A stretch of DNA of 43,532 bases from a virus, in the IMG/VR virus record IMGVR_UViG_3300033127_000097, positions 1 through 43,532 of that record; one strand, 5' to 3'. Positions 13,533 through 40,092 of the stretch are shown in pieces (positions within the stretch are counted from its first letter, which is position 1; each line of letters begins with the position of its first letter). A program made the translations under genes and the position numbers. Below the pieces are notes generated by a model, which was not told where the DNA came from, searched no databases, and saw only the letters and a list, made by a program, of their open reading frames with translations.

Positions 13533-13724
13533 ATGCGCAAGTACAAGCAAGTCGACGGGGCTGTGCTCTACATTGATGGGCCAGGCACCGTTAAGGACGG
13601 GGTCATGTTGGAGGAGTCAGTTGTCGCGCGGTTGCCGGCGGTTAAGACGACTGCGGAGCAGCGGCTTGAAAGCAAGCTGCGGTCTGAAATCGGCAAGATC
13701 AACGAGCAATTGGAAGAAGAGTGA
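13533..13724 (+). CDS. Small hypothetical protein (63 aa)
   Basis: An AGGAG RBS lies 6 nt upstream of ATG 13533. The C-terminus is helical and charged. Confidence 0.5.
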   Translation: MRKYKQVDGAVLYIDGPGTVKDGVMLEESVVARLPAVKTTAEQRLESKLRSEIGKINEQLEEE

Positions 13725-13725
13725 A

Positions 13726-13944
13726 ATGAACTGGAATGACATCCTTGAGCGGGCCGGTTGGACTTTTGTCCAGGCGTTCGTCGGCACCTTTGGTGCGATC
13801 AGCTTGATCTCAGACTTGAGCGAGATCGCAGGGGCAGCTGACGCAGCTGCGGCTGCGGGTCTTTCTGCAGTTTTGAGCTTCGTGAAGACGGTCGCTCAGG
13901 AGCGGCTTGCTATCCCTGAGACGAGGGTGCCTCCAGGTGCCTGA
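13726..13944 (+). CDS. Holin (r1t-type-like, 72 aa)
   Basis: MNWNDILERAGWTFVQAFVGTFGAISL... has two hydrophobic segments. Its N-terminal pattern resembles r1t-family holins, and it sits immediately upstream of the amidase. Confidence 0.55.
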   Translation: MNWNDILERAGWTFVQAFVGTFGAISLISDLSEIAGAADAAAAAGLSAVLSFVKTVAQERLAIPETRVPPGA

Positions 13945-13951
13945 CGAGCTG

Positions 13952-14665
13952 ATGCCCGGCGTGCGGCACATGTTGCTGCCCGAGGCGTATCAGGAAACTC
14001 GTATTGATGACGATGACGTCGTACAGGTCATCGTTCACTCCTTCGCTGACGGTCCCGGCGCAACGAGAATGCGGGACTATCTGGCTCGTTCGGACGTGAA
14101 GGTCGAGTACACGTTCGGCGTGTACTCCGATGGCCGTATCGATCAGTGGGTGCCGGTGGGTTATGCCGCCGACGCGACGATTCACGCCAAGAACCATTCG
14201 GTTTCGATCGTCTTTGAGTCGGACTCCACGAGCTCAAGTAAGCCGTTCACCGAGGCGCAATGGGCTGCGCTGGTGAGGATCACGGTCTGGCTCCACCAGG
14301 AATGGGGCATCCCGCTGAAGCTGATCCCTCATGGCCAGCCGACCTCGCCGGGGTTGGGCTGGCATCGAATGTACATCGAGGGCAACAAGTCGGGGCTGGG
14401 CTATGCATCGAGCTACGACTTTCAGGGGGATCCGTCGTACTCGTGGTCGCTGTCCCGCGGCAAGACCTGCCCCGGCGATGCCCGCGTAAAGCAGCTCGAG
14501 GCGCATTGGGTGAACGATGTGCGCGCGGCGCTTCCGTTGCCTGAGTATTTGGCGGCAATGAAGGCCGATTGGCAGCTGGTGAAGAGGATCACGTGGATGC
14601 GTCCCGGCAAGCGTTTCAGGCGCATCCGGGCTATAGCAATCGAGAATCTCGATCGTTTCCCCTAG
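13952..14665 (+). CDS. Endolysin, N-acetylmuramoyl-L-alanine amidase (Amidase_2/PGRP-like)
   Basis: The motifs are VIVHSFA, NHSVSIVFES and GKTCPGDARV, the last being a typical Zn-amidase C-terminal motif. I chose the ATG at 13952. The ORF opens at TTG 13907, overlapping the holin. Confidence 0.75.
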   Translation: MPGVRHMLLPEAYQETRIDDDDVVQVIVHSFADGPGATRMRDYLARSDVKVEYTFGVYSDGRIDQWVPVGYAADATIHAKNHSVSIVFESDSTSSSKPFTEAQWAALVRITVWLHQEWGIPLKLIPHGQPTSPGLGWHRMYIEGNKSGLGYASSYDFQGDPSYSWSLSRGKTCPGDARVKQLEAHWVNDVRAALPLPEYLAAMKADWQLVKRITWMRPGKRFRRIRAIAIENLDRFP

Positions 14666-14674
14666 GATCTCGGC

Positions 14675-16228
14675 GTGGTAGCTACCCGCCTGGAGATGCT
14701 CCAGCAAGAAGTCGAATGGCGCAAGTGTGCAAGTTCGGTCGAGTACTTCTGCGAGAACTTCGCCTATATCGAGCATTCGGATCCGACGAAGGGTGCGATT
14801 AAGTTCAAGCTGAGACCTGAGCAGCGCGACGTTATGGAGACGTGGTCGCGGGGTCAGGACACGATCAGTTTGAAGGCCCGGCAGATTGGCTGGTCGACGT
14901 CAGTGTGCGTGTTCTCGCTGCACCGTGCGATCTTCTTTGCGCCATCGAGGATCTTGATGCTGTCCAAGAAGCAGGACGACGCACGGGATCTCGTGGACAA
15001 GTGCCGGTTCACGTACGAGCGGTTGCCTGAGTGGATGCGGGAGCGGTGCCGTCGCACCAATCGTTCGGTCGACTCGATGAAGTTTGACAACGACTCGAGG
15101 ATCGAGGGGCTGCCATCGAAGAAGGACCCTGCCCGTTCGAAGTCGGCGTCGATCATTGTCCTCGACGAGTGGGCGTTCTATGACGACCCGGAGAATGCGT
15201 GGGCGTCGATCGAGCCAGCGATGGATGTGGGTGGGCATTGCATCGCCTTGTCGACGGCTAATGGTGCCGGCAATTTCTTCCACCGGTTCTGGAAGCAGGC
15301 GGTGGCGGGGGTTAATGGTTTCAAGCCGCTCTTCTACTCGTGGCGGGTCGTACCTGAGCGGGACGACGAGTGGTACGAGAACAAGAGAATGAAGATGGAG
15401 CCTTGGGCGTTGGCTCAGGAGTATCCGAACAATCCTCGCGAGGCGTTCATCATCTCTGGCTCGCCGGCGTTTGACGTCGAAGCGCTGATGGCCACCGATC
15501 ACGAGGAGTATCAGCGTGGATGGCTGCACGAAGAGGCAGACATGATGAAGTTCACCGAGGCCCGCAACGGTGACGTGCACATCCTTGAACATCCGAGGGC
15601 GCATGGAACGTATGTGGTCGGCGCCGACGTCGCTGCCGGCAGGGCGACTGGCGATTTCAGTTGCGCACAAGTGCTCGACGTTGAAACTGGCAGGCAGGTT
15701 GCGCGCTGGCACGGCCACATCAACGTGGATCAGTACGCAGACGAGCTCTACCGGCTGGGTACCTACTACAACAGCGCCTTGATGGCACCCGAGCGAAACG
15801 GTGTTGGGGGTGAGCTGGTCAGGATCTTGCGGTCACGTGGCTACACGAACATCTATCGGGAGGCGAGGCGCACCCGCGGCCGCACCGATGTCGAGGAGAC
15901 GTACGGCTGGCTGACCACTGCAGGTTCGAAGTATGCGATCGTAATGGGCTTGACCGAGGCGATCCGTGACGGTTCGCTAGCGGTCACTCACGAGGCGACC
16001 CTCAATGAGTTGATGAGTTACCGGCACACGAAGAAGGGCACGTTTGAGGGCGACCCTAACGATGACGAGGTAATGGCGATCGGCATTGCGTGGCAAGTAC
16101 TGCCGCTGGCCAGGCCCTCGTGGTTTGATAGAGAAGATCGAAATGAGGACCGGGACCCATTTAGGGCCAGTGAAGTGTTCGGGACGAGTGCCCGACGTAC
16201 GACTAGGAAGCGGATTGGTGCAACATGA
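14675..16228 (+). CDS. terL: Terminase large subunit
   Basis: Walker A-like KARQIGWST, Walker B IIVLDEWAF and the nuclease-domain motif VGADVAAGRATGDFS are present. It is ATGA-coupled to the portal gene. GTG start at 14675, with an alternative ATG at 14696. Confidence 0.85.
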   Translation: MVATRLEMLQQEVEWRKCASSVEYFCENFAYIEHSDPTKGAIKFKLRPEQRDVMETWSRGQDTISLKARQIGWSTSVCVFSLHRAIFFAPSRILMLSKKQDDARDLVDKCRFTYERLPEWMRERCRRTNRSVDSMKFDNDSRIEGLPSKKDPARSKSASIIVLDEWAFYDDPENAWASIEPAMDVGGHCIALSTANGAGNFFHRFWKQAVAGVNGFKPLFYSWRVVPERDDEWYENKRMKMEPWALAQEYPNNPREAFIISGSPAFDVEALMATDHEEYQRGWLHEEADMMKFTEARNGDVHILEHPRAHGTYVVGADVAAGRATGDFSCAQVLDVETGRQVARWHGHINVDQYADELYRLGTYYNSALMAPERNGVGGELVRILRSRGYTNIYREARRTRGRTDVEETYGWLTTAGSKYAIVMGLTEAIRDGSLAVTHEATLNELMSYRHTKKGTFEGDPNDDEVMAIGIAWQVLPLARPSWFDREDRNEDRDPFRASEVFGTSARRTTRKRIGAT

Positions 16229-24148: not shown

Positions 24149-24531
24149 GCGATCGACGAGTAATCCCCGGCAGCATCCCTGACGTTCCGACGTTCGGCGA
24201 CTCCAAAGAGAACAGGCTGCCGGGCATCCCGTTGCCGAGCCCTTCGGAGTACATCGATAAGTCGGGTGCGAGCAAGGGTGACATCGCACCGAAGCGCAAG
24301 CGCAAGTCTTCCAAGAGGCGCAACCGGTCGCTGCCAAACCAGAGTGGCGTGGCGGAGGCTCGGCGTCGCGCTGATCAGTTGCAGGCTGCGCTGATCTTGG
24401 CGCGTAATGGCCCCGGTCAGCCCGGTGCGTTTGACATCTCAGGCCAGTTCGGGGGCGCAGTGAATAACCAGCCCTTCCTAGATGAGGTGAACAATGCCCG
24501 TATTCAGCAGCAACAACAGCGACCTGCCTGA
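24145..24531 (+). CDS. Basic hypothetical virion protein (128 aa)
   Basis: ATGA-coupled. It has a KRKRKSSKRRNR basic patch. Confidence 0.5.
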   Translation: MSDRRVIPGSIPDVPTFGDSKENRLPGIPLPSPSEYIDKSGASKGDIAPKRKRKSSKRRNRSLPNQSGVAEARRRADQLQAALILARNGPGQPGAFDISGQFGGAVNNQPFLDEVNNARIQQQQQRPA

Positions 24532-25240
24532 CGCTCCAGCCGACGGCATAGTCAATGTCTTAACCCCCCTGCTCGCCCCCGGAACGGAGCGGCAATCGGC
24601 GACCGAGAACCCGGAGATCGTTGAGCTTCCGAGGACCGAGCTGAACCGTGCGGGCGTTCCGCAGAATCTTCTCGCACCGGTACCTGATCCGCCCGTCGCC
24701 GGCATCCCTACATTGGCGACGTCGACGACTGCGGCCGCGGCGGTTCTTGCGGGGATAGAGTCGTTTGCCAGCCGACCGTTACGTGCCTTGCGCACGGGGT
24801 TGTCGAGCTCGTCCGACGATGGCGGATTCAGCGTGGAGTCCGACATCGACGGGCTTCCCGAGTTTCAGGAGGCGATCGCTTTCTTGGAGTCGTCAGGGAA
24901 TGCCCGTGCTGTCGGCCCGCAGACCAGGTACGGCACAGCCAAGGGTCGTTACCAGTTCATCGATGCGACGTGGGAACGGGCTGCACGTTTGGTGCCAGGA
25001 GCTTCTCGGTACCCGACGGCGCTGTCCGCTCCGGCGTCGGTCCAAGATCAGGTGGCAACAGCATGGTTCACTAGCCTCTTTGAACGGTATGGGAGCTGGG
25101 AGCTGGTAGCGGTTGCCCATCATGCCGGCGAGGGTACAGCGAACAATTTTCAGCGGACCGGGCAGTTGAGCACGTCAGACGTTCTTGGAACTCAAACAAG
25201 TGATTATGCGCAGCGAGCTCTTAGGAGGGCATTCGGATGA
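24494..25240 (+). CDS. Internal virion protein with a lytic transglycosylase (SLT) domain
   Basis: FLESSGNARAV (catalytic Glu-Ser), GRYQFIDATW and AHHAGEG match the SLT domain pattern. Confidence 0.75.
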   Translation: MPVFSSNNSDLPDAPADGIVNVLTPLLAPGTERQSATENPEIVELPRTELNRAGVPQNLLAPVPDPPVAGIPTLATSTTAAAAVLAGIESFASRPLRALRTGLSSSSDDGGFSVESDIDGLPEFQEAIAFLESSGNARAVGPQTRYGTAKGRYQFIDATWERAARLVPGASRYPTALSAPASVQDQVATAWFTSLFERYGSWELVAVAHHAGEGTANNFQRTGQLSTSDVLGTQTSDYAQRALRRAFG

Positions 25241-31349: not shown

Positions 31350-31701
31350 CCTTGCGTGGCTTAGGGGTGAGTGCGTCCTGCCAAATTTTCTCAGGTGGAC
31401 GAACGAGTGTAATAGCGCCTGTCCATTCGGGGGCCCACTGATTGACGGTGAACTCGTCTCTGTCGGGATAGTGGAATAGCACGAATGGCTCATCCCGGTC
31501 CCGCATCCAGGTGAGGAACATACGCAGCCATGGTGGCCACGGACTGCCGGCGGCAATAACATCGCAGTCCAGCAACCACTGGTAGGCGAGCAGGACACGC
31601 TTGTACTCCGGCGGCAGCCCCCGACCCGGCCCGACGTCGATGCCACCTTTGGCCATGCGAAACACCTGCGCCGCGTTCGGCATGCTGCCTGTGTAGCTCA
31701 A
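31339..31701 (-). CDS. Hypothetical Trp-rich protein (120 aa), last gene of the leftward operon
   Basis: The TTG start at 31701 overlaps the upstream TGA, with an alternative ATG at 31683. The 3' end overlaps the convergent giant gene by 11 nt. Confidence 0.5.
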   Translation of the reverse strand: MSYTGSMPNAAQVFRMAKGGIDVGPGRGLPPEYKRVLLAYQWLLDCDVIAAGSPWPPWLRMFLTWMRDRDEPFVLFHYPDRDEFTVNQWAPEWTGAITLVRPPEKIWQDALTPKPRKVSS

Positions 31702-33140
31702 CGTCCTGCCAGTCTCGTGAGCACCTTGGCCAAGATGCCAACGATTGCGGTGGGCGTGAAGTCTCTGAGTAGATCGAAGATGATGTCAATCTCGATGGGC
31801 TCGAACTCCTCCTCCGGCTCGTCTGGCTCCTCCGGCTCGTCTGGCTCCAGCATCTTGTCGAGGGATCGGGAGAAGTCAAGGCTGCCGTTGCAATGCATCA
31901 CCCCAAGATGCGAGTCCTCCAGGTTCGAAACCGGGGTGCCGCAGTTCGGGTAGGTGGCGTCGGATACCAGCTGACCATTGGTGCGGCTGACCGCCGCGAC
32001 CACGTCCCCCTTCTCGTGCACGGTCAGCACCTCGAAGAACACGTTCCGATCCCTGTTCATCACGTCATCGCCATCGTTAACGAAGCCCACTTCGATGTCG
32101 GTGCTGTACTCGAGGCCGAACCACGTGAATTTGGAGCCTGCCCGGCGAGCGATCATGCGACGTGCACATGGCTCTCCGTCAACGGCAAGCTCAAGTTCCT
32201 CTGAACCGGTGGCGCCACTAGCTGAGACACTGACGTCCATTGGCCCGTGTCCGCACACGACACCGTTCGGGACGTCGACCGGATACGCGGACTCGCGCAT
32301 TGGGTTCGCATCGTAGACCGCCATGTCGGCGTAGGTCAGTGTCGACTTCGTAGTGGGCTGCCACTCGGCAGTGTTGCCTCCCCAGTAGCTCTGGAAGAGC
32401 AGCGTGTCGATCTGCTGTTCAGCGTTTGGGCCGAGCCAAGCGAAGTCCATGCCGTCGCCATTGAAGAGCCTGCCATCCAAACGCAACACCACGTGGTCGT
32501 CGACCCACGCCTCGAAAAACTGGTTCTCACCCACGCCATAGCCAAGCGTCAAGGTGAACCATTCCCCGAGCGGGACATGCCAGAGACCCTCATCCCCAAT
32601 GCGTCCCATTTCGATGCCGTTGTTACGTCCGTCGTATTGGTACGGGTAAGGGTTGTCGATGCCCTCCTTGCGGAAATTGATCTGCCGTCCGTAACGGAGG
32701 TCGTCACGCACAGCGAGCTCGTAGTCGTAGGCGTACACGCCAATGGTGAAGGCGTCAGCCGGCTCCCAACTCCTACCTGCAGTGTTCACGCCTCGCCACA
32801 TGAGACGTCCGGAGAATCCGAACTCGTCGTGGTTGCCGCCGGTGTGCGGGCCGTTGACCTGACCGTTGCGCCCCGTCGACCCAAGACCCGGCATCTTGCC
32901 GCCCACCGAGTGGGCCTTGAGGTTCTTGCCGAAGTCAAAGTCCTTGGGGAAGAAGCACGAGTACTGCAGCCATAGCTCTTGGTGTCCTTCGGGAAGTGGC
33001 ACTTCGGCGCCTGAGGCGTTGTAGTCGTTGGGGACCGTGGTGTAGGTCATCGTCCCCTCGTCAGAGAAATCCCACTTAGCGAGATCGTTCCAGCGATGAT
33101 CGGGTGCGGGCCCGTTGAATTCGCGAATCGTGTTAGCCAT
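31698..33140 (-). CDS. Polysaccharide lyase (PL14 / Polysacc_lyase-like) with a C-terminal carbohydrate-binding-like module
   Basis: FDFGKN...VGGKMPGLGS...FGFSGRLMWRG...IGVYAYDY resembles the GGKLPGL...FSxRLMWR...Y.Y signature. The C-terminal part contains FVNDGDDVMNRDRNVFFEV, which looks CBM-like. This is followed by a PDEPEEPDEPEEE linker and an amphipathic tail. Strong AAGGAGAG RBS. Confidence 0.6.
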   Translation of the reverse strand: MANTIREFNGPAPDHRWNDLAKWDFSDEGTMTYTTVPNDYNASGAEVPLPEGHQELWLQYSCFFPKDFDFGKNLKAHSVGGKMPGLGSTGRNGQVNGPHTGGNHDEFGFSGRLMWRGVNTAGRSWEPADAFTIGVYAYDYELAVRDDLRYGRQINFRKEGIDNPYPYQYDGRNNGIEMGRIGDEGLWHVPLGEWFTLTLGYGVGENQFFEAWVDDHVVLRLDGRLFNGDGMDFAWLGPNAEQQIDTLLFQSYWGGNTAEWQPTTKSTLTYADMAVYDANPMRESAYPVDVPNGVVCGHGPMDVSVSASGATGSEELELAVDGEPCARRMIARRAGSKFTWFGLEYSTDIEVGFVNDGDDVMNRDRNVFFEVLTVHEKGDVVAAVSRTNGQLVSDATYPNCGTPVSNLEDSHLGVMHCNGSLDFSRSLDKMLEPDEPEEPDEPEEEFEPIEIDIIFDLLRDFTPTAIVGILAKVLTRLAGR

Positions 33141-33717: not shown

Positions 33718-34068
33718 TCAGAACAGTGGGTTAACCCACCGGTACTTCGTGCCACACGGCATGAGTTCGTAGAAGCCATCGAAGGTTTTCGATAGCCAGA
33801 TGTCAGGGAGCGGGCCGAGGTCCTCGCCAGCGATCTTCTGACCGTTGACTTTGCGGTCGCTGAATTTGCGACGGACGACGCATTTGGCCCACGGTCCCCC
33901 GATCATCATTGCCCCATCGGTGGGCTGGCATCCGACCCGCCTGCGGGAGGTTGCGTGGTACTCTTCGCGCCATCGTGTGCGGCCAGGAATTCCAGAAACC
34001 GTCACAGTCTTCCCCGTCGATACGTCGAATAGTCGATTCGTCGTAGGGCAATACCGAAGGGTCAGCAT
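33718..34068 (-). CDS. Hypothetical protein (116 aa)
   Basis: GAGGAG lies 10 nt upstream of ATG 34068. Third-position GC is 16/20 in this frame at 33901-33960. See the finding on the frame ambiguity at its 5' side. Confidence 0.45.
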   Translation of the reverse strand: MLTLRYCPTTNRLFDVSTGKTVTVSGIPGRTRWREEYHATSRRRVGCQPTDGAMMIGGPWAKCVVRRKFSDRKVNGQKIAGEDLGPLPDIWLSKTFDGFYELMPCGTKYRWVNPLF

Positions 34069-34140
34069 CGGCAGCGTTCTCCTCGTCGTCCGAGCCGATC
34101 AGCCAATAGGCGATCAGCATTGCGGGAACCGCTAGCCACT

Positions 34141-34281
34141 TCACAAGGTTCGCCACAGGTAGACAGCAATGAGTAGCCATATGGCGATGCTCGCTGCGCT
34201 CATCACGACAACCAGAGCGCGTTGAATCCGCTCAATCTGCCTTGTCCGACGTCGCAGTTCTTCCCACGGATCTTCTGGCAT
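34141..34281 (-). CDS. Small single-pass membrane protein (46 aa, absent from the ORF track)
   Basis: GGAG RBS then ATG at 34281. Peptide MPEDPWEELRRRTRQIERIQRALVVVMSAASIAIWLLIAVYLWRTL. Confidence 0.45.
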   Translation of the reverse strand: MPEDPWEELRRRTRQIERIQRALVVVMSAASIAIWLLIAVYLWRTL

Positions 34282-34289
34282 TTCTGCTC

Positions 34290-34883
34290 CTACCTGTTTC
34301 TCCAGCATGTCCATGCTCCGAGCCCTTGCTCGGCTTCGACGATTGCTGACTGTGCTCCATTTAATACCGGGTTGGTGATCCAGTCGTCAAATTCCAGCCC
34401 AAACGTCGCATTGAATGTCGATCTCCACGATGGCCGATGGACCTGTGCTCGCCCCCAACTGTGGCCAAGTGTTCGATCGCCGTGTGCCTCATGCGGTTCG
34501 GCAACACCTCCGCTCTCGCACGGCAAGATCACCGTCGCGAACGCTGCCTCATTGGTGCCACCCATTGCCCGGTAGCCGGCGAACCACAGCTCATCCAACT
34601 GTGTCAACGTCAACTGCTCATCCTGCAGCCGCTCCTCGAGGCGGTCGATGATCCGGTTCTTCGCATAGTTGCGCCTCGCCAGCGTGTCCTTCCAGGCACG
34701 CAGCTTGTCACGCTGCTCGGTCACCAACTCGAGGCGAGCAGTGAGTGCGGTGACCTGTGCTTCAAGTTCAGCATCTCGAACCTCCCGCACGATCACCTCG
34801 TGCTCCACCGGTGCAGGAGCCGACATCACGGCCACACTCAGCGCCAAACTCAACGCCCCCACGATTCCACTCAGTCTTCCCAT
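34290..34883 (-). CDS. Secreted Rpf-like transglycosylase with signal peptide and coiled coil (197 aa)
   Basis: The GGAGG RBS sets the start at 34883. Signal-like N-terminus MGRLSGIVGALSLALSVAVMSAPAP, followed by a coiled coil. The C-terminal CESGG...SWGRAQV...SW...GLGAWTCW resembles the transglycosylase-like (Rpf) domain. Confidence 0.6.
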   Translation of the reverse strand: MGRLSGIVGALSLALSVAVMSAPAPVEHEVIVREVRDAELEAQVTALTARLELVTEQRDKLRAWKDTLARRNYAKNRIIDRLEERLQDEQLTLTQLDELWFAGYRAMGGTNEAAFATVILPCESGGVAEPHEAHGDRTLGHSWGRAQVHRPSWRSTFNATFGLEFDDWITNPVLNGAQSAIVEAEQGLGAWTCWRNR

Positions 34884-35152
34884 AGCTCTGCCTCCAAAAA
34901 TTCTGCGCGCAACTCCGTACGGATGCGCCTCTTCGCCCTTACCCACTGCTGCCGCACGGCAGTCTCGGTCGTACCTGTCTCCTCGGCGATTTCGGACCAT
35001 CGCCTTCCAGCTGCACGATAGTCAAGCAGCTGAAGATCGCGAGGCGGCAGGTTGCGCATGGCCTTCACAATGAACTGTGAGAGCTGCTCTCCTGCCGCCT
35101 CGATTACTTGCTCACGCTCCTGGCTCAGTGCCAGCAGGTCCGGATCTGTCAT
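34871..35152 (-). CDS. Sigma-70 region-4-like HTH protein (93 aa)
   Basis: LPPRDLQLLDYRAAGRRWSEIAEETGTTETAVRQQWVRAKRRIR matches the sigma70_r4 / LuxR-type HTH pattern. No region 2 is present. The start is uncertain (35152 or 35188). Confidence 0.55.
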   Translation of the reverse strand: MTDPDLLALSQEREQVIEAAGEQLSQFIVKAMRNLPPRDLQLLDYRAAGRRWSEIAEETGTTETAVRQQWVRAKRRIRTELRAEFLEAELWED

Positions 35153-35471
35153 CGATGGCCTCCACGATGGCAGCGAACGTGGCGACATCCATCGTCACCC
35201 ATTGCGCTGCCGGGTCGGCCACATTCTTACGCTTGTGAACCACAACCGGTAGCTCATCTTGCCCTGCCTGCTCAACGGCCTGACCCCACCACTCAGGCAG
35301 CGCCAATTTGGCGTGGTTCTTTATCTCGATGGCGAACCCGCCAACGACAGCGTCGGCCCCGCTAAAGCCCGATGCCGCCGGATTCGGGATCGTCCGGTTC
35401 AGAGTCTTGGACAGGTGGTTCCGGATCACCCTCTCGAACTTGGCCCCCTTCTCCCTCTGCATCTTGCCCAT
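35112..35471 (-). CDS. Holliday junction resolvase-like PD-(D/E)XK nuclease (Hjc-type)
   Basis: KGAKFERVIRNHL...GADAVVGGFAIEIKNH carries the Hjc-type D...E-x-K pattern. Third-position GC is 18/20 in this frame at 35401-35460. Confidence 0.6.
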   Translation of the reverse strand: MGKMQREKGAKFERVIRNHLSKTLNRTIPNPAASGFSGADAVVGGFAIEIKNHAKLALPEWWGQAVEQAGQDELPVVVHKRKNVADPAAQWVTMDVATFAAIVEAIDDRSGPAGTEPGA

Positions 35472-35862
35472 CGAGTTCTCCTTCCGGCTCGGTCATCTCG
35501 CTCACGTCGCGTTCGCCCTCTGCGACGCTGACTTGATGGTCTTGACTACCGTCACCCTTCGCCTTGAAGCGCTTCATGCCGTGCTGATAGCGCGGCGACT
35601 GCATACGCATCTTGACCGCACGCACCCGAAGGATCTGGTGCGGGTAGTAGACGTAACCCTTGCTGACCAGCTGAGCAATGACCCAGTGTGTCATCTTCGC
35701 AGTCTGCGGATCGATGTCGAAACGCGGCGGACCCTCATAGTTGTCGACCAGGGTCATCTCGAACCCGTTGTCGTAGAACTCCAAGGTGACCTGAAGCCCC
35801 TCACTTATGGGAACTTCAGGCGGCTCAAACTCCGCCCCGTTCTCAATGAATATCTTGTGCAT
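35362..35862 (-). CDS. Hypothetical protein (166 aa) whose acidic tail overlaps the resolvase gene
   Basis: A strong AGGAGGAAAG RBS precedes ATG 35862. The frame stays open 110 nt into the next gene. Confidence 0.55.
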   Translation of the reverse strand: MHKIFIENGAEFEPPEVPISEGLQVTLEFYDNGFEMTLVDNYEGPPRFDIDPQTAKMTHWVIAQLVSKGYVYYPHQILRVRAVKMRMQSPRYQHGMKRFKAKGDGSQDHQVSVAEGERDVSEMTEPEGELDGQDAEGEGGQVREGDPEPPVQDSEPDDPESGGIGL

Positions 35863-36823
35863 TACTTTCCTCCTTGGCCTCAGCAAAGGCCCTATCGATC
35901 ATCGACCGGCACACGTCCAACGAAATGAAATCCGGCTTCTGGTCAAGTTGATTCTCCCAAACAGAGACCATCAGAGCGTGCGCCTCATCAAGGTTGTACT
36001 GCGGGTGCGCTGCCAAGAAGTTGGCAAGGTTCCACAGATTGTTGTTCCGACCATCGACCATCCCACCCTCGTGGTAGATCATCTGCCCCTTCACGATGTT
36101 GTGCGCGTCCTGAGTCGCACTAGAAACCTTGACCCTCTTGCCCTCAATCTTCACCTCGCGTCGGGGCGGCGGCTTCTCGTGATATCTCTCAGCCAGCTCT
36201 CGCACTCGAGCTGACGAAACCTGATGCGCTTCGGCGTAGTCAAGGAACTGTTCGAATGAAAGAATCCTGCCGTCGTCGTCGACGCACACCATCCGGTTAT
36301 GCGGCACCCATTTGGCATGATACGGCAGACGTACATAGTTGCCGAGGTTCTTTGAATGGTCAGTGCCGACACGTTGCTTTGGGTTGATCTCCTGACACTC
36401 CAGCGCAGCAGCCTCGTCAACGAGCAGGAGTGCCTTACGCAAGGTGTCCGCCGGCACCGGCAGGTCAAGGAACAGCCACACGTGTCGGCCTTCGCCTGAC
36501 CTCGAGATCTCAATGACGCCATTGAGGCCAGCCCGACGCAGACAGGTCAGTGCGTACTGAGCGTCGACGGCGGGGTCTCCTCGCTTCGAATCGAAATCGA
36601 AGCATCCCCACCATGAATTGCCGTCCTCATCGGCGGCGTAACATCCGACCCCCTCGGCGGTCGGGTCCGTCAGGTGCGCCTGCAGGTGGCCAGGCAGCTG
36701 CCTTGGCTCGATCACAACACTACGCTCACGCCCCTTGAGCTTGGGCTCCGACAACCCAATCCGGTGCTCACGGTTCACGAACAGCCGATAGAACCGCTTG
36801 TAGTTCTCATTCAGCTTGTCCAT
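35843..36823 (-). CDS. Primase-polymerase (AEP family) with a PriCT-like C-terminal domain
   Basis: WWGCFDFDSK (metal-binding DxD) and SRSGEGRHVWLF (sGxGxH) are present. The C-terminal GRNNNLWNLANFL resembles a PriCT domain. AAGGAG RBS. Confidence 0.65.
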   Translation of the reverse strand: MDKLNENYKRFYRLFVNREHRIGLSEPKLKGRERSVVIEPRQLPGHLQAHLTDPTAEGVGCYAADEDGNSWWGCFDFDSKRGDPAVDAQYALTCLRRAGLNGVIEISRSGEGRHVWLFLDLPVPADTLRKALLLVDEAAALECQEINPKQRVGTDHSKNLGNYVRLPYHAKWVPHNRMVCVDDDGRILSFEQFLDYAEAHQVSSARVRELAERYHEKPPPRREVKIEGKRVKVSSATQDAHNIVKGQMIYHEGGMVDGRNNNLWNLANFLAAHPQYNLDEAHALMVSVWENQLDQKPDFISLDVCRSMIDRAFAEAKEESNAQDIH

Positions 36824-37784
36824 CGAAGTCTCCTTCCATTGGGTGCATCATCTCTTGCACCAGCGGCCACGGCTTCATAGCCACCGTTGACGCTTCCCCA
36901 ATGCGATGCACATGAGGGCAAAGGCTCAAGTTGTTCCACTGCTTCAACGCCTTCTCCTTGCTTACCGGGCCACCGAGGTAGGCCCGACCCTGTTTGGCCT
37001 TCATGATGTTGAACAGGATCTCATTGTCCTCATGCGTGCGATCACTAAAGCGCCACACACCAATCGCGCAGCCATCGATCGCTGCCTCGCCTCCCCCGAA
37101 CAATTCGTTGAGATCTGGAGCCGACGGTCGAGTACTACTAGGGCGGCGCAGCTGCGAGATCAGACACCAAACCGACTTCTTGAACTGGCGACACAGCCTC
37201 TTGTGCTCCCGCATATGCACCAGACCGGACACGTTGGAGTCGCCGCCCTCAATCTCAAGGCAGCCAATGTAATCGAACACGATGAGCTCGGCCGGCGCTC
37301 CCCACATGCGCTCCGCCTGATCCACCACAGATGCCACGTCGTCAATGCTCGCCCCGAGCAGGTCGGTATTAGGGATGTGTAACTGCGGGAACCTATCCAT
37401 CACCGTGGTCTCAAGACTCTTCGGCGTGTACTGCGACATCGGATGCTTGAACTCCCGCTTGAGATCAAACGTGCGACGCTTCAACACTGAGGCTGCCAGA
37501 TCAAACATAACGCTCGAGCGATCTTCGTCGGCATGCAGGTAAAGGATTCGCCGGTCGTGGTTCCTTTGAATCATGGTCCTGGTGAGCAACGTCTTGCCGT
37601 GACCAGTGCGGCCGGCAATGACGTTAAGCACACCAGGATGCATGCCTCCCTCAAGGAACTCGTCAAGGAACGGAACGCCAACCGGAAGCGGGTCGCCTTG
37701 CCGTAGCAGCTCCTCGAACTCGCGACGATACGGGCCGTTGCCCTCCCGAATGATCGAGTCGAACTTGTCGAACTTCGAACTCAC
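36807..37784 (-). CDS. DnaB-family / RecA-fold replicative helicase (325 aa)
   Basis: Walker A AGRTGHGKT and Walker B ELIVFDYIG are present, with DnaB C-terminal-domain-like spacing. GTGA-coupled GTG start. Confidence 0.7.
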   Translation of the reverse strand: MSSKFDKFDSIIREGNGPYRREFEELLRQGDPLPVGVPFLDEFLEGGMHPGVLNVIAGRTGHGKTLLTRTMIQRNHDRRILYLHADEDRSSVMFDLAASVLKRRTFDLKREFKHPMSQYTPKSLETTVMDRFPQLHIPNTDLLGASIDDVASVVDQAERMWGAPAELIVFDYIGCLEIEGGDSNVSGLVHMREHKRLCRQFKKSVWCLISQLRRPSSTRPSAPDLNELFGGGEAAIDGCAIGVWRFSDRTHEDNEILFNIMKAKQGRAYLGGPVSKEKALKQWNNLSLCPHVHRIGEASTVAMKPWPLVQEMMHPMEGDFDGQAE

Positions 37785-38479
37785 GTCGGCTTATTGATCC
37801 CAGCTTCCACCAGGTGAAGGTTGGCGACAGCCCATGCCGGTGGAGGTCCGAACTTACTGTGCAAGTAGAGGGTCTGTGGACGCGGCGAGCCCAGCACGCC
37901 CTTCTCAGGAAACCGCTCGTGGCTCACAGCTTTGAAGTCGGGGGCGTCTGTCGACTTGAGGGCGCTGCGAAGATCAATCCAGGCGTCGGGCTCTGTCAGC
38001 AGCATGTACCAGCACTGGTCGACCCAGTCGTTGAGCTCTTCTGGTGGCGGCAGCGGCACTCCCGGCTGACCAGTCTGCAGATCCGGCTCGCCGCTCGGAG
38101 GTACGACATGGTTGCCCAGATGATTCGCCGCCGCCTGCTGAGCAGGTGACGCTGCAGTCGCGAGCGACTGGTCAACCACCGTAGGCATCGTCGCCGGCGG
38201 CGCTGGTATCGGCTGTGGTGGTGCAGCCACCGGTGCGGCGCCAGGGAAGATTTCGACCACCGTCTTCGTGACAGGGTCCTGATTGAACGCCAGCCCAAGT
38301 TCGGTGAAGATCAGTGCCTTAATCTCCCGGTACTGCTCACGGGCAGCCTCGATGGCATCATCAGTTGACGAGCTCAGCGGCACCGAGTAGCGAACAGTTA
38401 TGCCGGCGCTGGCCTTACCGTTCACTTCGACGTCGACCTGCCGTGCGAAGTTGACCTCGAATTCCATTTCATCACTCAT
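37781..38479 (-). CDS. Hypothetical two-domain protein with a Pro-rich linker (232 aa)
   Basis: I chose the internal ATG at 38479, which has a GGAG RBS and overlaps the upstream stop by 8 nt. Confidence 0.55.
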   Translation of the reverse strand: MSDEMEFEVNFARQVDVEVNGKASAGITVRYSVPLSSSTDDAIEAAREQYREIKALIFTELGLAFNQDPVTKTVVEIFPGAAPVAAPPQPIPAPPATMPTVVDQSLATAASPAQQAAANHLGNHVVPPSGEPDLQTGQPGVPLPPPEELNDWVDQCWYMLLTEPDAWIDLRSALKSTDAPDFKAVSHERFPEKGVLGSPRPQTLYLHSKFGPPPAWAVANLHLVEAGINKPT

Positions 38480-38807
38480 TGGGCTCTCCAGTGATCGGGT
38501 TCGGGGCCATCTCCGGCTCGTTCTCATCGGCAGCAGGCTCATAGTTGACGTCAAGACGCAGCCACATCACGCCGTCCGACACGCGCGCCTCGAACTCGCC
38601 GGGCTCAGTGCCAGTCAGTCGACCCGCATTGATGCGGGACGCCAGGCTCGACATGCGGCCACGTGCCTCGTCGGTTTCACCTCGCAACGCAACCCAGTCA
38701 CCCTTCTCCTTCCGGGCCATGTCGAGCAGGGGTGTGTAGTCAGTACGCTTGCGTTTCGCCGGCGGGTCCGGCACTTTGCCTCCCGTCAGGATTGAGAACT
38801 CACTCAT
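38472..38807 (-). CDS. Hypothetical protein (111 aa)
   Basis: ATG at 38807, with an alternative GTG at 38816. It overlaps the nuclease gene stop. Confidence 0.5.
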   Translation of the reverse strand: MSEFSILTGGKVPDPPAKRKRTDYTPLLDMARKEKGDWVALRGETDEARGRMSSLASRINAGRLTGTEPGEFEARVSDGVMWLRLDVNYEPAADENEPEMAPNPITGEPNE

Positions 38808-39636
38808 CTGTTTCACCTTTCCGCATCCAATCGATGCTGTACTTGCGATTCGCGTGATGCTCGCCCATGCATTTGCCAGCGGCGAACGTCTCGCACCACT
38901 TCGGAGAGCAATGCCAGTCGGTTGGCCTCATTGGCCAACGCGGCAGCTCAGCCTCGATAAGGAACGCCAACGACAACGCCTGCGTCACCACCCCATCGAA
39001 GTCACCCTGGTCTCTCGTGACCGTGGCCATTTCCATCGGGTCGCCGCTCTTGGGGAAACGCACGTACGTGAACTCAGGGATCTCTCCGGTGGCTTCACGT
39101 ATGGCCATTGCGTAGATCGTTGGCTGCAGCGAGTACCGCTGCATCTTCCAATGATTCTCCTTGTAGGACTCGGCTGACGTCTTCCAGTCCCACAGCATGC
39201 CGGGCGTGTGATAATCGGGCGTCCCCTGGAACATGATCGTGCGAAATTGATCCTCGTAGGCGACGAAACGGAATGGCTTCTCAATATCGCCGCCGAGAGG
39301 GAAGTGGTGACGCTTGCTCCAGAACGTGGCGACAGTCTTGCGCACGATGAACACTGCCTGGTGAACGTTCTCCACCTGGAGCATGCGGATCTCATGCCAA
39401 TGTTCTTGCACGTACTGCACTGCGATGTCGACGAGCTCGGCCTCGGTCTTGTTGCCGTCAGCCTTTAGGTACTCCTCGATCGACAGGTGTGTGGCCGTAC
39501 CGATGAGCGTCGCGTCGCTGCCCTCAGAGAGCGGCGGGCGCGTGCGCAGCTTTTCGGGACACATGCGTGCCTCGTTCAGATCCGACTGGTGAAAGACGTG
39601 CGTCCAATAGCCGTTACTGTCTTGCGTAGATCTCAT
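38800..39636 (-). CDS. Cas4/RecB-family PD-(D/E)XK exonuclease with a Cys cluster
   Basis: GTPDY...LWDWKTS (D...D-x-K) and QPTIYAMA (QxxxY) are present. An N-terminal Cys (RMCPEK) plus C-terminal CSPKWCETFAAGKC suggest an Fe-S cluster. I chose the ATG at 39636. Confidence 0.7.
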   Translation of the reverse strand: MRSTQDSNGYWTHVFHQSDLNEARMCPEKLRTRPPLSEGSDATLIGTATHLSIEEYLKADGNKTEAELVDIAVQYVQEHWHEIRMLQVENVHQAVFIVRKTVATFWSKRHHFPLGGDIEKPFRFVAYEDQFRTIMFQGTPDYHTPGMLWDWKTSAESYKENHWKMQRYSLQPTIYAMAIREATGEIPEFTYVRFPKSGDPMEMATVTRDQGDFDGVVTQALSLAFLIEAELPRWPMRPTDWHCSPKWCETFAAGKCMGEHHANRKYSIDWMRKGETDE

Positions 39637-39702
39637 TGGTACCTGTTTGCTGATTGCTGGCGTCAGCAACCTAGCAACGTGCAGCGCGATTGCAAAACGG
39701 AG

Positions 39703-39757
39703 GAGACCCACCCTCAGGCGGCAGCGGCGCATTGCCTTATGCCTGAGAGCGGGTCTC
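39703..39757 (-). terminator. 16-bp hairpin (two G-U pairs on the minus-strand RNA) followed by CUCCGUUUUGC
   Basis: The minus strand reads gagacccgctctcagg, a 23-nt loop, then cctgagggtgggtctc. On the plus strand the same positions are A-C mismatches. Confidence 0.4.
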
Positions 39758-39831
39758 GGCGACAGGCGAATCGGCGGAAATTCGTACCTGTCAAGATCAA
39801 GCAGTACCGCGTCCTGCGATCACTGCCAAGT

Positions 39832-40092
39832 TCAGCCCCGCAATTTCTTGAACCTCTTCAAGACATCGTTCACCACACCTGAAGGGATGCCCCAATGAAG
39901 ACGCGCCTCCTCCAGGCGAGCAGGAGTGTCGGCGTGAAGCTCCAAGATGGCGTCGGTCATCTGACTTCGAGCCAACGTCAGGTCACGGTACGCAAGCCCC
40001 AGCCTGGTGCGTGCGTCAGCTTCCGAACGAGACGATGTCTCCGGAATCTCCCGAAGTTCCTGACGTCTCGGATACTCCATGTGCTCGGCCAT
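39832..40092 (-). CDS. Hypothetical protein (86 aa)
   Basis: A GGAGAGGGAAG RBS precedes ATG 40092. Confidence 0.5.
   Translation of the reverse strand: MAEHMEYPRRQELREIPETSSRSEADARTRLGLAYRDLTLARSQMTDAILELHADTPARLEEARLHWGIPSGVVNDVLKRFKKLRG

Follow-up and report, generated by a model that had tools for sequence, protein, structure and literature searches.

Signal-peptide and signal-arrest-release (SAR) endolysins, such as fOg44 Lys44 and P1 Lyz, are muralytic proteins that are exported by Sec ahead of lysis, serve as the main endolysin, and are encoded in the lysis cassette. Kayvirus Tgl is reported to be a Sec-secreted transglycosylase of Staphylococcus phage that is related to host autolysins; its gene can be read from an early-type promoter, and the protein lyses only depolarised cells, alongside the main endolysin (PMC7150955). 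Resuscitation-promoting factors (Rpf) are known from Actinomycetota (PMC1084345). Here we analysed a 43,532-nucleotide stretch of virus DNA (IMG/VR record IMGVR_UViG_3300033127_000097, positions 1 to 43,532, called the window throughout) and, in it, a minus-strand gene for a 197-aa protein with a predicted Sec signal peptide, a long helical stalk, and a C-terminal domain. On profile and model evidence, this domain is best placed as a divergent member of the lysozyme superfamily, roughly equidistant from glycoside hydrolase family 22 (GH22) lysozyme, SLT/SLT_3, and Rpf. The window is an apparent whole phage genome with a GC content of ~60%, and the phage probably infects Acidimicrobiales bacteria. 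The gene and its parts are as follows.

34290-34883, minus strand: gene, including stop, for the 197-aa lysozyme-like protein, predicted to be exported; ATG at 34883, GGAGG 7 nt ahead
34821-34883, minus strand: predicted Sec signal peptide, residues 1-21 (MGRLSGIVGALSLALSVAVMS), from hydropathy and n/h/c layout
34620-34808, minus strand: long alpha-helical stalk, residues 26-88 (~63 residues), a single helix in AlphaFold
34293-34610, minus strand: lysozyme-like catalytic domain, residues 92-197 (~105 aa), from AlphaFold, Foldseek, and profiles
34515-34520, minus strand: C122-E123; E123 is the predicted general acid and C122 the predicted disulfide partner of C193
34305-34307, minus strand: C193, predicted disulfide partner of C122
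34458-34463, minus strand: H141-S142; Asp-Asp in >90% of the family, with S142 aligned to Asp52 of C-type lysozyme

A public gene caller gives the identical call for this gene. An alternative start at 35000, which would give a 236-aa protein, was rejected because a ribosome-binding site is lacking there, codon-position GC is atypical in the added part, and the overlap with the upstream gene for a sigma region-4 protein would be 130 nt.

The relationship of the catalytic domain to known enzymes emerged from its relatives. Scanned directly against Pfam, PHROGs, NCBIfam, and PADLOC, the 197-aa protein gave coiled-coil noise alone, and phmmer with the full-length protein found no match in the PDB. 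A full-length profile searched against the PDB was dominated by EnvC, MED4, and the like, coiled-coil matches that were rejected as compositional, and the Foldseek matches of the full-length AlphaFold model (predicted local distance difference test score [pLDDT] 72, poor at residues 120-150) were discarded as meaningless. That model was replaced by one of the domain alone, built with a deeper alignment (A4, 50 sequences). A first search had returned 20 homologues, none with a Pfam annotation, whose alignment shows a highly conserved domain of ~103 residues, and an exhaustive profile search of 1.84 billion representatives brought together 113 proteins. When the 69 distant relatives among these were compared with Pfam, SLT was matched by 36/69, SLT_3 by 33/69 (best 1e-19), Transglycosylas by 19/69, and C-type lysozyme by 11/69. 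Five residues are invariant in 50/50 sequences of alignment A4, namely, the Glu of CES, the Gly and Gln of G-x-x-Q, an Asn, and a Trp. The domain of the 197-aa protein carries the motifs LPCESGG, WGRAQ, NPVLNG, and GAWTCWRNR; the CESGG...GAWTCW pattern to which a preliminary description of this DNA had drawn attention is thus present, with C122, E123, and C193 as its key residues.

Profile and structure comparisons agreed on the superfamily. Searched against the PDB, the expanded profile matched solved C-type lysozymes (E 7e-11) in alignments that ran across Glu35, the Asp52 strand, and the C-terminal AW..WRNR, and the core-family profile alone placed solely C-type lysozymes in its top ranks (E 0.015-0.1). 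By hhalign, hen lysozyme was matched at 94.6% with an E-value of 7.3e-8 and the RpfB catalytic domain at 89.8% with an E-value of 1.8e-6; the identity of the RpfB query was confirmed by a full-length 177-bit match to PDB 4emn. The same comparison with the phage's own virion SLT protein detected no relation (0.2%). The domain-only AlphaFold model (pLDDT 96.9; predicted template modelling score 0.90) has a lysozyme/lytic-transglycosylase fold, in which the catalytic Glu (E32 in domain numbering) ends the helix at 21-33. Foldseek against the PDB returned MltE, at the top, and insect C-type lysozymes with probabilities of 0.96-0.97 and TMq of 0.55-0.63 (TMq is the TM-score normalised to the query), and RpfB with probabilities of 0.75-0.82 and TMq of 0.43-0.50. 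Against the viral library BFVD, phage SLT/LT_GEWL proteins were matched with probability 1.0 and TMq up to 0.73. All top Foldseek matches are lysozyme-like proteins. Since the E-values are modest, the superfamily assignment rests on several agreeing lines and not on one match; similarity in both profile and structure extends significantly to several member families of the lysozyme-like clan (Lys, SLT, SLT_3, and Transglycosylas).

C-type lysozyme (GH22, PF00062), including Musca lysozyme 2fbd and the human enzyme, gave the best solved-structure profile matches (E 7e-11 with the expanded profile and 0.015 with the core profile; TMq 0.61-0.63). Three regions correspond, with ES at Glu35, TDDWG-x-QIN against TDYG-x-QIN at Asp52, and QGL-AWTCWRNR against QGIRAWVAWRNR. 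However, the family is bacterial and phage-borne, has 2 cysteines where the lysozymes have 8, and in the 197-aa protein has Ser at the Asp52 position. The 197-aa protein does not match PF00062, and the intermediates P0058, P0059, and P0061 remain below threshold for it (<=21.7 bits against a cut-off of 27). With SLT and SLT_3 (PF01464 and PF18896, respectively) and with MltE, the domain shares the fold and a Glu-Ser motif that ends the catalytic helix, and the nearest intermediates match these models. The SLT/SLT_3 models gave no match to the 197-aa protein itself, and 2/20 core members touch SLT at E 0.02.

The preliminary description had assigned the domain to the Rpf type, an assignment that stands at the level of the lysozyme superfamily and in the pattern of CE and second Cys but not beyond, given that there is no match to the Rpf Pfam model PF06737 and that the domain is no closer to Rpf than to its other relatives. 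The likeness to RpfB (PDB 4emn/3eo5) lies in a Cys followed by the catalytic Glu, a G-x-x-Q-x4-W motif at identical spacing, and a C-terminal GAW-x(1-2)-C, such that the CE...AWPVC of RpfB aligns with C122, E123, and C193. E123 also aligns with lysozyme Glu35. Both cysteines are invariant in the core family and likely form a C122-C193 disulfide. RpfB and the 197-aa protein are also both exported (by prediction in the latter) and both found in Actinomycetota. However, PF06737 was not matched at E<=1 by the 197-aa protein nor by any of the 20 core homologues, the domain exceeds that of Rpf by ~25-30 residues and has two additional helices at its N terminus, a lysozyme-type Asp pair that is absent from Rpf is present in most of the family, and C-type lysozyme and MltE score better by both profile and structure. 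Pfam, NCBIfam, and PHROGs have no entry for this family, which joins features typical of C-type lysozyme with others typical of Rpf in a lysozyme fold of minimal size. Neither its fold, nor its route of export, nor the concept of a secreted accessory lysin is without precedent; the family itself is what had not been catalogued.

The active site of the 197-aa protein departs from that of its family at one place. In >90% of members, T-D-D-W-G precedes the G-x-x-Q strand and the second Asp aligns with lysozyme Asp52; both residues, at positions 141 and 142, are nearly invariant in alignment A1, and all genome copies (21/21) keep T[DN]DWG. The 197-aa protein has G-H-S-W-G in their place, within a loop that is 3 residues longer (GDxxxGxS[WLH]GRAQ). 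Thus, the catalytic pair of GH22, Glu35 and Asp52, is incomplete, with E123 present and Ser142 at the position of Asp52, although none of the invariant residues, the catalytic Glu included, has been lost. Four further proteins, P0002, P0045, P0046, and P0049, also have Ser for Asp; 5/5 carriers lie in phage contexts, and in a neighbor-joining tree the five share one section with the phage-type members P0037 and P0044, which retain TDDW. Loss of the Asp52 equivalent favours Glu-only chemistry similar to that of lytic transglycosylases, and from the sequence we infer either this or a weakened hydrolase. As a natural Asp-to-Ser variant, the protein offers a ready-made test of hydrolase against transglycosylase chemistry.

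The N terminus and the stalk fit the signal-peptide-like start and coiled coil of the preliminary description. After an initial MGR, the protein has a hydrophobic stretch of ~17 residues (mean Kyte-Doolittle hydropathy 1.97 over 19 residues), and the predicted signal peptide would likely be cleaved after A18 or S21. This call is based on hydropathy, charge, and the -3,-1 rule, together with a matching N-terminal arrangement in 19 phage-type homologues; all those checked (19/19) have a short charged n-region and an h-region starting from residues 5-12, and several have a clear AxA site. The stalk is modelled with a pLDDT of 84-96 over residues 31-70, its best heptad register places hydrophobic residues at 67% of a/d positions, and family members match coiled-coil Pfam models. 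The modelled helix is probably a coiled coil. It contains a motif, W-x3-L-x4-Y-x3-R, that is also present in the phage homologues at L001, L030, L031, and L033.

The family occurs in two forms, one of the host and one of phages. Among the loci in species-representative genomes, 20/21 belong to metagenome-assembled genomes (MAGs) of Acidimicrobiales or Acidimicrobiia. The chromosomal neighbourhood, GntR - gene - LysR - NrfD/Fer4 - molybdopterin, is conserved across distant MAGs, indicating a vertically inherited host gene. These host forms (P0004-P0033; loci L003-L025) start with an M-x-SYDSVT motif, 12-32 residues ahead of a transmembrane (TM) segment, and continue past it with ...SAAQ, a variable spacer, the coil, and the domain; these motifs suggest a regulated or anchored host enzyme, as predicted from sequence. 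The second, more divergent set consists of proteins of ~190-225 aa with a typical signal peptide right at the start and with neither M-x-SYDSVT nor the SAAQ motif. Every signal-peptide form with an inspectable contig lies in a phage-like context, of which there are at least seven.

L001: Gam/ERF/WhiB context
L030: Gam/ERF/terminase context
L031: PDDEXK_15 context
L032: HNH/HTH/methylase context
L033 and L034: context of integrase, cI-like repressors, and WhiB
L035 and L036: phage-like contexts

At all inspected phage loci, the enzyme gene occupies an early or regulatory region and never adjoins holin, endolysin, or tail genes. The phage sequences are highly divergent and, in a rough tree, paraphyletic. 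Host and phage contigs with the family were found together in one metagenome (ERZ23488462). No family match was found in 50,697 GenBank phages (by megablast and tblastn) or in PHROGs, and a pattern scan of IMG/VR found no relative. The family offers a host-linkage marker for metagenomic phages that are otherwise unassignable. The remaining one of the 21 genome loci is L008 (JBLIMK010000031.1), a homologue of the cell type in a MAG labelled Verrucomicrobiales, for which a binning error is likely and transfer less likely.

In the window, the plus strand holds chiefly virion, packaging, and lysis genes, and a long run of minus-strand genes is devoted to replication (DnaB-like helicase, AEP primase, and PDDEXK_15 nuclease). 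The sigma region-4 gene, the enzyme gene, and an open reading frame (ORF) for a small membrane protein are three successive minus-strand genes inside this run, each with a Shine-Dalgarno site, as the preliminary description had placed them. The PDDEXK and sigma region-4 genes overlap by 41 nt and the sigma region-4 and enzyme genes by 13 nt, while a gap of 8 nt lies between the enzyme gene and the membrane ORF. A promoter and terminator scan of the cluster found no such sites between the genes from PDDEXK to the membrane ORF. Because the genes overlap or abut and no promoter- or terminator-like sites intervene, the three genes would be members of one long transcript shared with the replication genes. 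The GC content at third codon positions (GC3) is 0.65 for the sigma region-4 gene, 0.68 for the lysozyme-like gene, and 0.57 for the membrane ORF, compared with 0.68-0.76 for neighbouring genes. The lysis cassette lies ~20 kb from the enzyme gene, in the part of the genome outlined here.

13573-13944, plus strand: holin, part of the lysis cassette
13907-14665, plus strand: Amidase_2 endolysin, part of the lysis cassette
at 14675, plus strand: terminase gene, adjoining the holin-amidase cassette
at 16225, plus strand: P22-like portal
24494-25240, plus strand: SLT-domain protein, in the structural module

The 197-aa protein is accordingly a third protein of muralytic type, apart from both the holin-amidase cassette (13573-14665) and the virion SLT protein (24494-25240), in agreement with the preliminary description. 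That account had also taken a free, exported muralytic enzyme from a non-late operon to be new, for which Kayvirus Tgl, the closest documented analogue, is a precedent (PMC7150955). Tgl and the 197-aa protein have in common that they are phage-encoded, carry a Sec signal peptide (predicted from sequence in our case) and a lysozyme-superfamily domain, are homologous to host wall enzymes, and are encoded apart from the major endolysin. They differ in that no sequence relationship between them is detectable; in that tgl lies a few genes from lysK, whereas the 197-aa gene lies ~20 kb from the lysis cassette in a replication operon; and in the long coiled-coil stalk of the 197-aa protein, whose activity is predicted. 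From signal-peptide and SAR endolysins, the locus is set apart by its position in the early region and by the presence of a separate holin-amidase cassette.

The most likely role, to which we give about an even chance, is that of a Sec-exported accessory wall glycosidase or lysin similar to Kayvirus Tgl. The fold, the conserved catalytic Glu, the export-type N terminus, the host homology, and the recurrent early-region position are observed; substrate, chemistry, timing, and a role in lysis are inferred from them, as follows. The pre-protein would be exported by Sec and its signal peptide cleaved around residue 18-21, after which the helical stalk would probably oligomerise. The domain would cut the glycan backbone of peptidoglycan via Glu123, as a lytic transglycosylase or a muramidase. 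Made together with the replication genes, the enzyme would already have reached the wall long before holin triggering and, as proposed here by analogy with Tgl, would serve as a pre-positioned accessory lysin that complements the holin-dependent amidase. If so, the family would bring an actinobacterial case to the few in which a phage exports a wall enzyme made from an early operon and would raise the question of what such enzymes do ahead of lysis.

Several points weigh against this proposal. The 197-aa protein itself matches no curated family, such that its homology to known enzymes is transitive, and the Foldseek E-values are weak (0.08-0.2 for the PDB and 3e-3 for BFVD) despite the high probabilities. 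Both near-invariant Asp residues are lost in its subclade, and hydrolytic activity could be low or altered as a result. The enzyme gene is always far from lysis genes, including in temperate phages, where it lies beside regulators, and this placement would suit a role outside lysis, for example in wall remodelling or exclusion, equally well or better. Finally, expression timing, export, and activity are all predictions.

The main rival reading is an early takeover of the wall by a soluble mimic of the membrane-anchored host homologue, with lysis not the aim; we regard this as possible, if doubtful. Such a mimic could weaken the wall or have it rebuilt, change how cells grow or septate, or bind the partners of the host enzyme through the shared stalk. 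In its favour, the host form is syntenic and vertically inherited, with a conserved M-x-SYDSVT tail in the cytoplasm, then a TM segment, coil, and domain, of which the phage forms keep the coil and domain with a signal peptide in place of the anchor; they also lie always in early or regulatory regions, in temperate phages too, and conserve the stalk motif W-x3-L-x4-Y. However, no conserved partner gene accompanies either form, and precise mimicry is not evident from phage sequences that are so divergent and, in the rough tree, paraphyletic. A bolder reading, which we consider unlikely, is that the family is the Acidimicrobiales counterpart of Rpf, a lineage-specific, anchored enzyme that remodels the wall and governs growth or division, of which phages have repeatedly kept a secreted, re-engineered early copy in order to redirect wall growth or rouse sluggish hosts, not to lyse them. 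If this were true, the phage copies would represent an exchange of anchor for signal peptide, with an altered active-site loop, in phages of slow-growing and mostly uncultured bacteria. A direct Rpf-like growth factor, in which released muropeptides or nicking of the wall restart slow or dormant hosts and so aid phage replication, is highly improbable, and resuscitation of dormant hosts is pure speculation. The CE-x-GG and AW-x-C pattern, the hhalign match to RpfB (89.8%), and likely hosts in Actinomycetota, the phylum in which Rpf is known, speak for such a factor; against it stand the lack of a PF06737 match in the core family (0/20 members), the greater closeness of C-type lysozyme and MltE by profile and structure, and a domain of ~105 residues with extra N-terminal helices where Rpf has ~75-80.

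The hydrophobic N terminus and the neighbouring membrane protein might alternatively be read as a holin-independent SAR or signal-peptide endolysin, with the downstream membrane protein as its holin, pinholin, or regulator. SAR domains are rich in Gly, Ala, and Ser, and by inspection these account for 10/19 residues of the N-terminal hydrophobic segment; in addition, a single-pass membrane protein with a charged cytoplasmic N terminus follows within 8 nt. Nevertheless, a canonical holin and amidase cassette already exists beside the terminase gene, the membrane protein is an orphan that does not lie beside the enzyme in other phage loci, and the signal peptides of other phage homologues are of the ordinary cleavable kind, with AxA sites, making this decidedly unlikely. 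The altered active site could also mark a pseudo-enzyme, an impaired binder that occupies or masks peptidoglycan, for instance, against superinfecting phages or host autolysins. Although both near-invariant Asp residues are lost in the subclade and replaced by a conserved Ser and a longer loop, every invariant residue, the catalytic Glu among them, is kept, Glu-only enzymes of the lysozyme fold, such as lytic transglycosylases, are active, and other phage-type homologues keep the Asp pair. We consider a pseudo-enzyme very unlikely, and the Tgl-like accessory enzyme is retained as the preferred reading.

The genes on either side of the enzyme gene were confirmed as a sigma region-4-only helix-turn-helix (HTH) protein upstream and a single-pass membrane protein downstream, with the following coordinates.

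34871-35152, minus strand: 93-aa sigma-70 region-4-only HTH protein; ATG at 35152, GGAGG 6 nt ahead
34919-35068, minus strand: HTH core of this protein, residues 29-78
34141-34281, minus strand: 46-aa single-pass membrane protein; ATG at 34281, AGGAG 5 nt ahead
34153-34218, minus strand: TM segment of the membrane protein, residues 22-43; mean Kyte-Doolittle hydropathy 2.64 over 19 residues

The proposal that the three genes form a functional cluster was not supported. The proteins flanking the enzyme at seven phage loci show no similarity to one another, and when all ORFs of the window were compared with the related loci by tblastn, the enzyme alone was shared, together with an antisense shadow. 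This plus-strand ORF (34177-34572), which gives tblastn matches in all related loci, is a shadow antisense to the catalytic domain and was not accepted as a gene. A conserved three-gene module was therefore rejected, with only the enzyme shared among phage loci and the membrane protein an orphan. The closest comparison is the related contig L037/L038, which is syntenic with window positions 34883-40068 (the replication module, from the helicase to the sigma region-4 gene) at ~45-68% amino acid identity. In L037, the sigma region-4 gene is followed by an unrelated 116-aa gene and then by a truncated ORF with an enzyme-like signal peptide and first helix. Given this order, and given that the L037 protein, at the equivalent position and with 54% identity, is the sole homologue of the sigma region-4 protein, the adjacency of the latter and the enzyme reflects shared ancestry of two related phages and no recurrent pairing.

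The 93-aa protein passes the Pfam model Sigma70_r4_2 (PF08281; E 6e-7, 29.4 bits, cut-off 25.7). It covers just positions 95-165 of the 165-position extracytoplasmic function sigma model TIGR02937 (33.9 bits against a cut-off of 42.9), and in that comparison sigma region 2, which provides core binding and -10 recognition, was not matched. By these profile comparisons, it is best described as an HTH protein of the sigma-4 fold rather than a sigma factor. Its coding region also contains a perfect 12-nt inverted repeat (35030-35112, minus strand; arms 35040-35051/35091-35102) with an RNA fold of -39.6 kcal/mol (z = -5.1 against shuffles) and a sequence without a second copy in the window. The related phage L037 does not conserve the hairpin, which might serve in processing or regulation upstream of the enzyme gene or be coincidental.

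The membrane protein has a charged N terminus (RRRTRQIERIQR), and the public gene caller starts its ORF at 34308, giving 55 aa. A homologue search of 5.8 billion sequences returned only the protein itself. It is thus an orphan and, like the sigma region-4 protein, an operon neighbour of the enzyme, not a demonstrated partner. Small membrane proteins that are not homologous to it occur 1-3 genes from the enzyme gene in several phage loci (L033, 5831-6004; L001, 5147-5524; L030, 3573-3767; L032, 6110-6466), which may be chance, as such proteins are common in phage early regions, or a hint of analogous partners.

Two overlapping minus-strand ORFs lie downstream of the membrane ORF, at 33803-34180 and 33718-34068. 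The former, of 125 aa, has a hydrophobic start (Kyte-Doolittle hydropathy 1.74) and a flat codon-position GC profile, and it was judged non-coding (GC3 0.59 against 0.69 in the overlapping ORF). The latter, of 116 aa and with the GC3 of 0.69, is the one in the public gene calls, and ~72 nt without an assigned gene extend from 34068 to 34141. The 480-aa product of the last large gene in the leftward operon (31698-33140, minus strand) contains a Polysaccharide lyase 14 domain (E 2e-13), a CBM60-like module below threshold (24.5 bits against 28.2), an acidic repeat, and a hydrophobic tail at the C terminus. Encoded away from the structural module, this protein may be a depolymerase of capsule or exopolysaccharide, and the phage contig L030 also has a protein with a faint CBM60 match.

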